From: a virus
Lineage: Duplodnaviria; Heunggongvirae; Uroviricota; Caudoviricetes
Virus record (IMG/VR): IMGVR_UViG_2547132252_000009
Direction: 5' to 3' (one strand)
DNA: 7,819 nt
Positions 5,818 through 6,356 of the stretch are shown here, piece by piece; positions within the stretch are counted from its first letter, which is position 1; each line of letters begins with the position of its first letter. The notes below the pieces were generated by a model. That model was given only the letters and a program-made list of their open reading frames with translations. It was not told the DNA's origin and did no database searches. Position numbers and translations under genes: made by a program.

Positions 5818-6207
5818 ATGGAATTTAAAGATTTACTAAAAGAAATCCAGGAAATTGCAGCACATGCACTTCACCAACGTCTGAACGAAGTTGAATTAGA
5901 ATCTGCAACGAAGAAATACATTGATAATATGGCTCGTAATGTGCGCGATGCGTTTACCGGATTGTACTCTGTTTCGGTAACAAACAACCAGAATACTGAA
6001 GAAACTGCAAAGCGGATTGCCTCGGTGATGGGTTTTCATGTCGAGGAAAAGTATTCAAAAAAAGAATTCTGGAAAACTACAAAAAAATTGCAGAGCGAGA
6101 ACTGTCATCTCCTGCGGCAATCGCTTCTTTCTATGAGGAAAGTTATTCAGATGACACAGGATTACCGGAACTGCTCTCATTACTTGAAAAATTCGGAATT
6201 ATCATGA
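5818..6207 (+). CDS. ydfC: YdfC-like protein; the C-terminal ~45 residues of this frame look out-of-frame (probable frameshifted gene)
   Basis: ATG 5818 with GGAG 7 nt upstream; N-terminal ~82 aa protein-like; after the A7 runs at 6057-6063 and 6081-6087 the reading becomes C/H/R/K/N-rich, while the -1 frame reads a convincing protein. Confidence 0.6.
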   Translation: MEFKDLLKEIQEIAAHALHQRLNEVELESATKKYIDNMARNVRDAFTGLYSVSVTNNQNTEETAKRIASVMGFHVEEKYSKKEFWKTTKKLQSENCHLLRQSLLSMRKVIQMTQDYRNCSHYLKNSELS

Positions 6208-6356
6208 AAGGGACTGCGTCGGCGGATTTCACATACTCAATGATGGCTGCTGATGGAGAGCCTTTTCCTCCCGAACTTAAAATAACCCCCGGCAATCATC
6301 CGATGGTAACAATAAGAGCAATAGAGAATTACTGGTTTAATCCAGTTCAACAATAG
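6204..6356 (+). CDS. Small ORF (50 aa), or more likely the C-terminal part of the ydfC-like protein reached by a -1 frameshift
   Basis: ATG 6204 overlaps the upstream TGA (ATGA). The same frame is open and protein-like from 6000 to 6356 but has no ATG/GTG/TTG between 6000 and 6204. Confidence 0.45.
   Translation: MKGTASADFTYSMMAADGEPFPPELKITPGNHPMVTIRAIENYWFNPVQQ

Follow-up and report, generated by a model that had tools for sequence, protein, structure and literature searches.

A frameshift pseudogene with an apparent −1 recoding site very probably arose through loss of one A from a poly(A) run in a lambdoid Escherichia coli prophage

The DNA analyzed here (7,819 nucleotides; referred to as the window throughout) carries, on its plus strand at positions 5818-6356, a gene that is very probably an ordinary frameshift pseudogene; it results from the shortening of a run of eight A residues to seven (A8 to A7) and has become fixed in one widespread prophage lineage. 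We observed the deletion, intact relatives of the gene, and the fixation of the A7 state directly. Programmed frameshifting, functional leaky slippage, phase variation and a split gene, taken jointly, make up an unlikely set of alternatives. The 539-nt query corresponding to 5818-6356 is 100% identical to many E. coli O157:H7 chromosomes, and the window is part of a lambdoid prophage of the Qin/dicBF type that E. coli O157:H7 shares with related strains.

The ATG at 5818 opens a frame-0 ORF of 129 amino acids (5818-6207), which RefSeq lists as the 'hypothetical protein' WP_000394511.1 and which is composed of an authentic N-terminal part (codons 1-90; 5818-6087) and an out-of-frame tail (6088-6207) that comprises 39 codons and a stop. 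Two A7 runs lie within it, the first at 6057-6063 (TCA AAA AAA, read as S-K-K) and the second at 6081-6087 (ACA AAA AAA). Both start at the third base of a codon in the frame of ATG 5818 and hence stand in the X_XXY_YYZ register, so that their initial annotation as A_AAA_AAA heptamers in the frame of ORF 5818-6207 was accurate; the five A7 runs counted in the entire window represent no enrichment over the 5.2 expected from shuffled sequences. The -1 frame is open between the stop codons at 5997-5999 and 6354-6356, and the ORF list also bears out the statement that it offers no ATG, GTG or TTG before 6204. Its first start codon, ATG 6204-6206, overlaps the frame-0 TGA (6205-6207) in the tetranucleotide ATGA (6204-6207), corresponds to Met130 of the intact protein, and opens a 50-aa ORF (6204-6356). 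The continuation of the protein in the -1 frame (6087-6356; ATT GCA GAG ... CAA TAG, with the stop at 6354-6356) contains the ancestral residues 91-179 (IAERELSSPAAIASFYEE...NYWFNPVQQ); an example of a peptide from this frame is IAERELSSPAAIASFYEESYSDDTGLPELLSLLEK.

When the conceptually repaired protein was used as the query in homolog searches, full-length relatives encoded by single ORFs were recovered: P0001 (179 aa; 94% protein identity), P0002 (179 aa; 84%) and P0003 (180 aa; 80%), as well as a distant subfamily whose members are single ORFs of 177-186 aa with 63-70% identity. Overall, every homolog at 63-94% protein identity is a single ORF of 177-186 aa, in which the junction site is either A8 or absent. 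Members of the distant subfamily in two complete genomes, as well as P0002 and P0003, are found in the same operon slot as the window gene. A fused protein of about 180 aa, as had been predicted from the window alone, therefore has real counterparts in the intact homologs of 179-180 aa. None of the homologs was seen to end near the stop codon of the annotated frame with a conserved C-terminus, the pattern that had been named as evidence against such a fusion; they are simply unbroken, and there is therefore no need for recoding either.

Alignment of the DNA sequences located the lesion. At the second run, close relatives read ACT-(A/G)CA-AAA-AAA-ATT-GCA-GAG (T-(T/A)-K-K-I-A-E), and the window has seven A residues at this position. 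P0001, P0002, P0003 and the metagenome locus L024 all possess A8 there and read EFWKT(T/A)KKIAEREL; in total, A8 alleles were found at the loci L004-L009, L021 and L024. Since the close relatives have A8 where the window has A7, the two frames join at the second run. In the distant subfamily, the corresponding position reads ATG GCC AAA CGC ATC in the same frame and is devoid of an A run. The first run is read in frame 0 by all homologs (SKKEFWK; one of them has TCG AAAAAA) and is thus not the frame junction but ordinary Ser-Lys-Lys coding sequence common to intact genes. The trans-frame peptide YSKKRILENYK, which had been suggested as a target for mass spectrometry, is not ancestral sequence because the frames join at the second heptamer and not at the first. 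Past a mosaic stretch comprising the first 100 nt, the window and the gene for P0001 (L004) are distinguished by four substitutions and one single-base gap. Because all outgroups are intact, the intact state is ancestral.

The two frames differ in character beyond 6087, as the initial annotation had recognized. The frame-0 tail (LQSENCHLLRQ...), described there as junk-like, is unmatched in the intact homologs and confined to A7 clusters. The -1 frame, described as protein-like, is the one that the intact homologs read, and it can be aligned with them up to their stop codon. Between the two intact subfamilies, the dN/dS ratio of the C-terminal part is 0.20-0.24, and 53 positions from residue 91 onward are invariant in nine full-length homologs; in the intact subfamilies, the C-terminal frame is a real protein under purifying selection. 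Among the origins that had been envisaged for the two-frame arrangement (recoding, transcriptional slippage or a recent frameshift mutation), the mutation is strongly upheld by the A8 homologs with their single ORFs, and both recoding options are without positive support. Several further alleles, P0017, P0018 and L022, have a frame shift at the first A run (SKKNSGK...), and P0016 is out of frame internally; these shifts reflect either additional lesions in homopolymers or errors in the reads.

We propose that the ancestral gene encoded a 179-aa protein with the A8 run in the context ACA AAA AAA ATT, and that one A was probably lost through replication slippage, the usual homopolymer error. Translation initiated at ATG 5818 would then exit the authentic frame after Lys90, pass through 39 unrelated codons and terminate at 6205-6207; the C-terminal 89 codons would be stranded in the -1 frame. 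Re-reading of a single A should restore the protein, the upstream frame being unchanged. When NNA-AAA-AAA-ANN loses one A, nothing changes in the upstream frame, and an in-register A_AAA_AAA heptamer is therefore created, with a -1 frame in which the protein continues. What appears to be a canonical -1 site is thus a geometric by-product of the position of the deletion and not evidence of design. Today, the gene may either be non-functional or direct the synthesis of a truncated 129-aa product together with read-through by spontaneous slippage in under about 1% of cases.

The same layout could in principle reflect programmed -1 frameshifting, in which a regulated slip at one of the A_AAA_AAA heptamers would generate the 129-aa and 179-aa products in a set ratio. 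The presence of two in-register heptamers agrees with this idea, as do the use of A_AAA_AAA by some IS3-family elements, the stability of the A7 state in 384 of 386 genomes, and a GAGGA sequence (6043-6047) positioned 10 nt upstream of the first heptamer. This spacing resembles, as we presume, that of the Shine-Dalgarno stimulator of dnaX. Yet GAGGA is ordinary coding sequence (part of V-E-E-K) and is not kept in P0003, and the heptamer at the junction is no more than what was left of an A8 run. All diverged homologs are single ORFs, and a search among them for the two-frame arrangement with its heptamer found it kept in none. We also folded the RNA in four windows 3' of the heptamers and compared it with dinucleotide shuffles; as regards a downstream stimulator, none of the four windows exceeded the shuffles in stability, and the RNA 3' of the second heptamer gave z = 0.05 to -1.26. 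According to reporter measurements in E. coli by Sharma et al. (2014; PMC4066793, Table S3), -1 shifting at A_AAA_AAA is 0.405% unaided, still only 0.82% when the IS911 stimulators are present, and 24.8% when the IS3 pseudoknot is. In the accessible part of the supplementary tables of that study, the gene is missing among the conserved-motif candidates. Substitutions at conserved residues that are unique to the A7 lineage (discussed below) also count against this idea. Taken together, these data render programmed frameshifting very improbable.

Low-level slippage at the A runs is a separate matter. Genes show a strong avoidance of A7 runs in every frame, for which transcriptional slippage or a high indel rate may be responsible (PMC4066793). 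The bacterial cases of transcriptional slippage that have been reviewed involve runs of 9 (Atkins et al., 2016; PMC5009743), and both runs studied here have 7 nt, versus the 9 A or T residues of those cases. That some full-length-like product could be made from the tandem heptamers and GAGGA is physically plausible as judged from the sequence; it would probably be formed in well under about 1% of translation events, and from a repressed operon. One may go further and regard the gene as a leaky pseudogene or 'savior indel', in which the deletion was selected because it lowered the amount of a harmful protein and the trace made by slippage is still functionally relevant. Without a stimulator, AAAAAAA shows apparent -1 shifting of about 0.4% at each site, the two sites feed the same frame, and the stranded frame is still fully open. 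Moreover, expression of its neighbours in the dicBF operon is toxic, and the concept is established in other systems (Atkins et al., 2016; PMC5009743). However, nothing points to toxicity of the intact protein or to the trace mattering to the cell, and the K-12 work indicates that the operon is kept repressed by a DicA-type repressor in lysogens, so that absolute amounts would be minute. The R163M exchange affects an invariant residue of the stranded part, and the run length of 9 in the reviewed bacterial cases argues in the same direction. We therefore give this possibility little credence. The related notion of a 'pseudo-pseudogene', with slippage at either A7 run yielding about 1% full-length protein and with this trace, or the down-tuning itself, having been selected as the prophage spread through STEC lineages, strikes us as equally doubtful.

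To return to the preferred explanation of a fixed deletion, a survey of 5,426 complete E. coli genomes found the A7 allele in 386, and all but two of these carriers (384) have the same sequence throughout a 79-nt stretch that contains both runs. The exact junction pattern did not occur in the 185,579 GTDB species genomes. E. coli E105, one of the two non-identical records, has a substitution rather than an indel and keeps the 129-aa ORF; in this strain, ydfB, just upstream of the gene, is interrupted by an IS3-family element for which a programmed frameshift is itself annotated (L011:1428-2641). The carriers include O157:H7, O121 and O103 strains as well as unrelated isolates, and over about 5 kb they share a prophage backbone with 99.3-99.9% identity. 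Judged by this degree of relatedness, the A7 carriers are to be seen as one prophage lineage and not as cases of independent conservation.

Run lengths of 6, 7 and 8 A residues are all represented in databases and homopolymers are mutational hot spots, two facts that might suggest phase variation, with the A7/A8 run operating as a reversible on/off contingency switch within populations. But an A8 query gave no exact match in the 5,426 complete E. coli genomes, and A8 was accordingly seen in 0 of the 386 carriers of the A7 haplotype. Scans of IMG/VR and metagenomes showed that the CTAC haplotype is always A7 and that A8 occurs in other haplotypes only; the A8 alleles belong to different haplotypes with P7 and R163. 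The A6 record (P0011/L010) belongs to an assembly in which 5 kb contain 11 gap openings. One draft genome supplied both L021, which has A8, and L022, in which the second run is A7 and the first lacks one A, as two separate contigs. We set aside both the A6 record and L022 as indicators of phase variation, as they are probable homopolymer sequencing errors. A contingency switch is, on these grounds, exceedingly improbable.

An equally far-fetched alternative is that the region comprises two genes whose products, the 129-aa protein and a 50-aa fragment translated from ATG 6204 through termination-reinitiation at ATGA, act as a split protein. The stop and start codons do overlap as ATGA, and the 50-aa ORF is predicted as a gene by some gene callers (P0121). 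Against this stand the identity of the ATG as an internal Met codon of the intact protein and of the TGA as a chance out-of-frame stop, and the loss of residues 91-129 of the intact protein that such an arrangement would entail. Inspection by eye revealed no clear Shine-Dalgarno sequence upstream of 6204, and the arrangement occurs in no diverged homolog.

If the gene has lost its function, as the pseudogene explanation would have it, constraint on its sequence might be relaxed. Compared with nine comparators, the changes unique to the A7 lineage comprise four non-synonymous and no synonymous substitutions, and three of the four fall on residues that are conserved elsewhere. P7L (5836-5838; CTA) replaces a Pro residue that is present in 107 of 109 homolog clusters, none of which has Leu. 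At the position of D34Y (5917-5919; TAC), Tyr is found in 0 of the 109 clusters, among which Asp (77), Thr (20) and Val (8) are represented. R163M (6303-6305; ATG in the -1 frame) alters a residue that is Arg in all nine intact full-length homologs, and Met163 is present in every A7 allele examined. R19H is less informative, as His is found elsewhere in the family at position 19. By a hand estimate based on the family dN/dS of about 0.25, the chance of a 4:0 pattern under purifying selection is approximately 5-10%. These data, which amount to 3-4 substitutions, are supportive rather than conclusive with respect to relaxed constraint in the A7 lineage. The stranded frame is still open across 89 codons; with so little variation within the A7 haplotype, decay of the stranded C-terminal part could not be read from its sequence.

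The genetic context was read from the RefSeq annotation of L001, a locus identical to the window. Upstream, the order is a YdaT-family protein, divergently oriented DicC-like and DicA-like regulators, RelB/RelE, ydfA (DUF1391) and ydfB; ydfB is followed by the 129-aa 'hypothetical protein' (window 5818-6207), a small convergent ORF, dicB, a DUF1482 gene and an exonuclease gene. An Rfam search placed DicF at 6916-6967. The ancestral 179-aa gene is thus a member of the early operon of a Qin/dicBF-type prophage and is situated between ydfB and dicF. In K-12, the genes from ydfA to ydfE, including dicF, form a single operon under DicA repression (PMC5069750; bioRxiv 10.1101/2023.04.14.536235).

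Several additional features of the window were noticed in the course of this analysis. The RelB/RelE toxin-antitoxin pair (4765-5243) lies between the gene for the DicA-like repressor (4336-4737) and ydfA, and it is missing from the K-12 Qin prophage and from the relatives L002 and L003. A tandem direct duplication of about 192 nt (261-452 and 485-675; 49 nt at 100% and 143 nt at 97% identity), whose copies are 223-224 nt apart from start to start, overlaps the 3' part of a minus-strand ORF (467-940). Directly 3' of DicF and 5' of dicB, we found an inverted repeat of 24 nt (6974-6997 and 7117-7140; 92% complementary) with 119 nt between its arms, which might form a long stem in the dicF-dicB spacer. 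The convergent minus-strand ORF (6394-6579; annotated as the 61-aa protein WP_001133046.1) possesses CPAC...CPEH motifs that are suggestive of a zinc ribbon, and a family search with it gave no match. Its counterpart in the intact relatives is 80 aa long and has a 20-nt overlap with the 3' end of the 179-aa gene.

Searches of Pfam and NCBIfam with the protein encoded by the 179-aa gene gave nothing significant, and PHROGs contained only families of unknown function that cover its N-terminal module. An AlphaFold2 model of P0001, built on a 9-sequence alignment, had a mean pLDDT of 49.9 and was too poor for a fold search. An exhaustive phmmer search over 1.84 billion representatives retrieved the C-terminal domain in its own cluster and in the 50-aa fragment only. 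Among phage records, Escherichia phage Evi alone gave a match, which is confined to the N-terminal module (26% coverage, 73% identity). This module of about 50 aa (5818-5970; MEFKDLPxxIQEIAAHxLRQRL...NMARNVRDAFTGLY) is present in more than 100 protein clusters with mutually unrelated C-terminal parts, such as the 212-aa 'Ybl81' type; P0019, P0051, P0053, P0087 and P0113 are among these proteins. At all three loci examined, genes for proteins with this module are located after ydfA/ydfB and before dicB. It looks as if C-terminal parts have been swapped in a cassette-like manner behind a shared N-terminal module.

The designation 'ydfC-like' given to the gene in the initial annotation applies to its operon slot and not to its ancestry. 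In the K-12 Qin prophage, ydfC occupies the same position, after ydfA-ydfB and before dicF and dicB. However, K-12 YdfC (b1573; L029:2324-2542) is a protein of 72 aa (MQKREPVII...), unlike the 179-aa ancestral protein of the window gene. A two-sequence BLASTP comparison of YdfC and the window protein gave a non-significant E value of 0.055 (14/33 identities, with gaps), and the two proteins share no Pfam or NCBIfam family. As K-12 YdfC is not detectably similar, 'ydfC-like' should be understood as a label of position only and the gene not as a YdfC homolog.

A practical lesson follows for the annotation of recoding sites: a single-base deletion in a homopolymer within a coding region leaves behind a perfect-looking X_XXY_YYZ heptamer and a -1 frame in which the protein goes on. 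A site of this kind imitates the signal for programmed frameshifting and needs to be checked against intact homologs. In the present case, the annotation is to be corrected: WP_000394511.1, which about 7% of complete E. coli genomes contain, is what remains of a prophage protein of 179 aa, whose stranded C-terminus is the 50-aa ORF 6204-6356.

With established -1 sites of E. coli, such as those of dnaX (A_AAA_AAG) and of IS3-family elements (A_AAA_AAG or A_AAA_AAA), the window gene has in common an in-register A-rich heptamer and a longer product in the -1 frame. It differs from them in having A_AAA_AAA, with 0.4% unaided shifting, rather than A_AAA_AAG, in yielding, upon folding of the RNA 3' of the second run, no hairpin or pseudoknot above the level of shuffles, in a layout that is not conserved in homologs, and in the origin of this layout from a datable deletion. 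Sites of transcriptional slippage (Thermus dnaX, IS elements with A9, Shigella, and the poly(A) rescue in Buchnera/Blochmannia) likewise have poly(A) at the frame junction, and one extra A in the mRNA would restore the protein there as it would here; the run in the window gene has only 7 nt, whereas those in the reviewed bacterial cases have 9. The closest parallels are homopolymer-indel pseudogenes of cryptic prophages and accessory DNA, from which the window gene shows no essential difference. It shares with them the single-base deletion in poly(A), the persistence of intact alleles in related elements, a chance stop codon that ends the out-of-frame tail, and the setting in a repressed operon of a defective prophage; here, RefSeq labels the 129-aa remnant a hypothetical protein and not a pseudogene.
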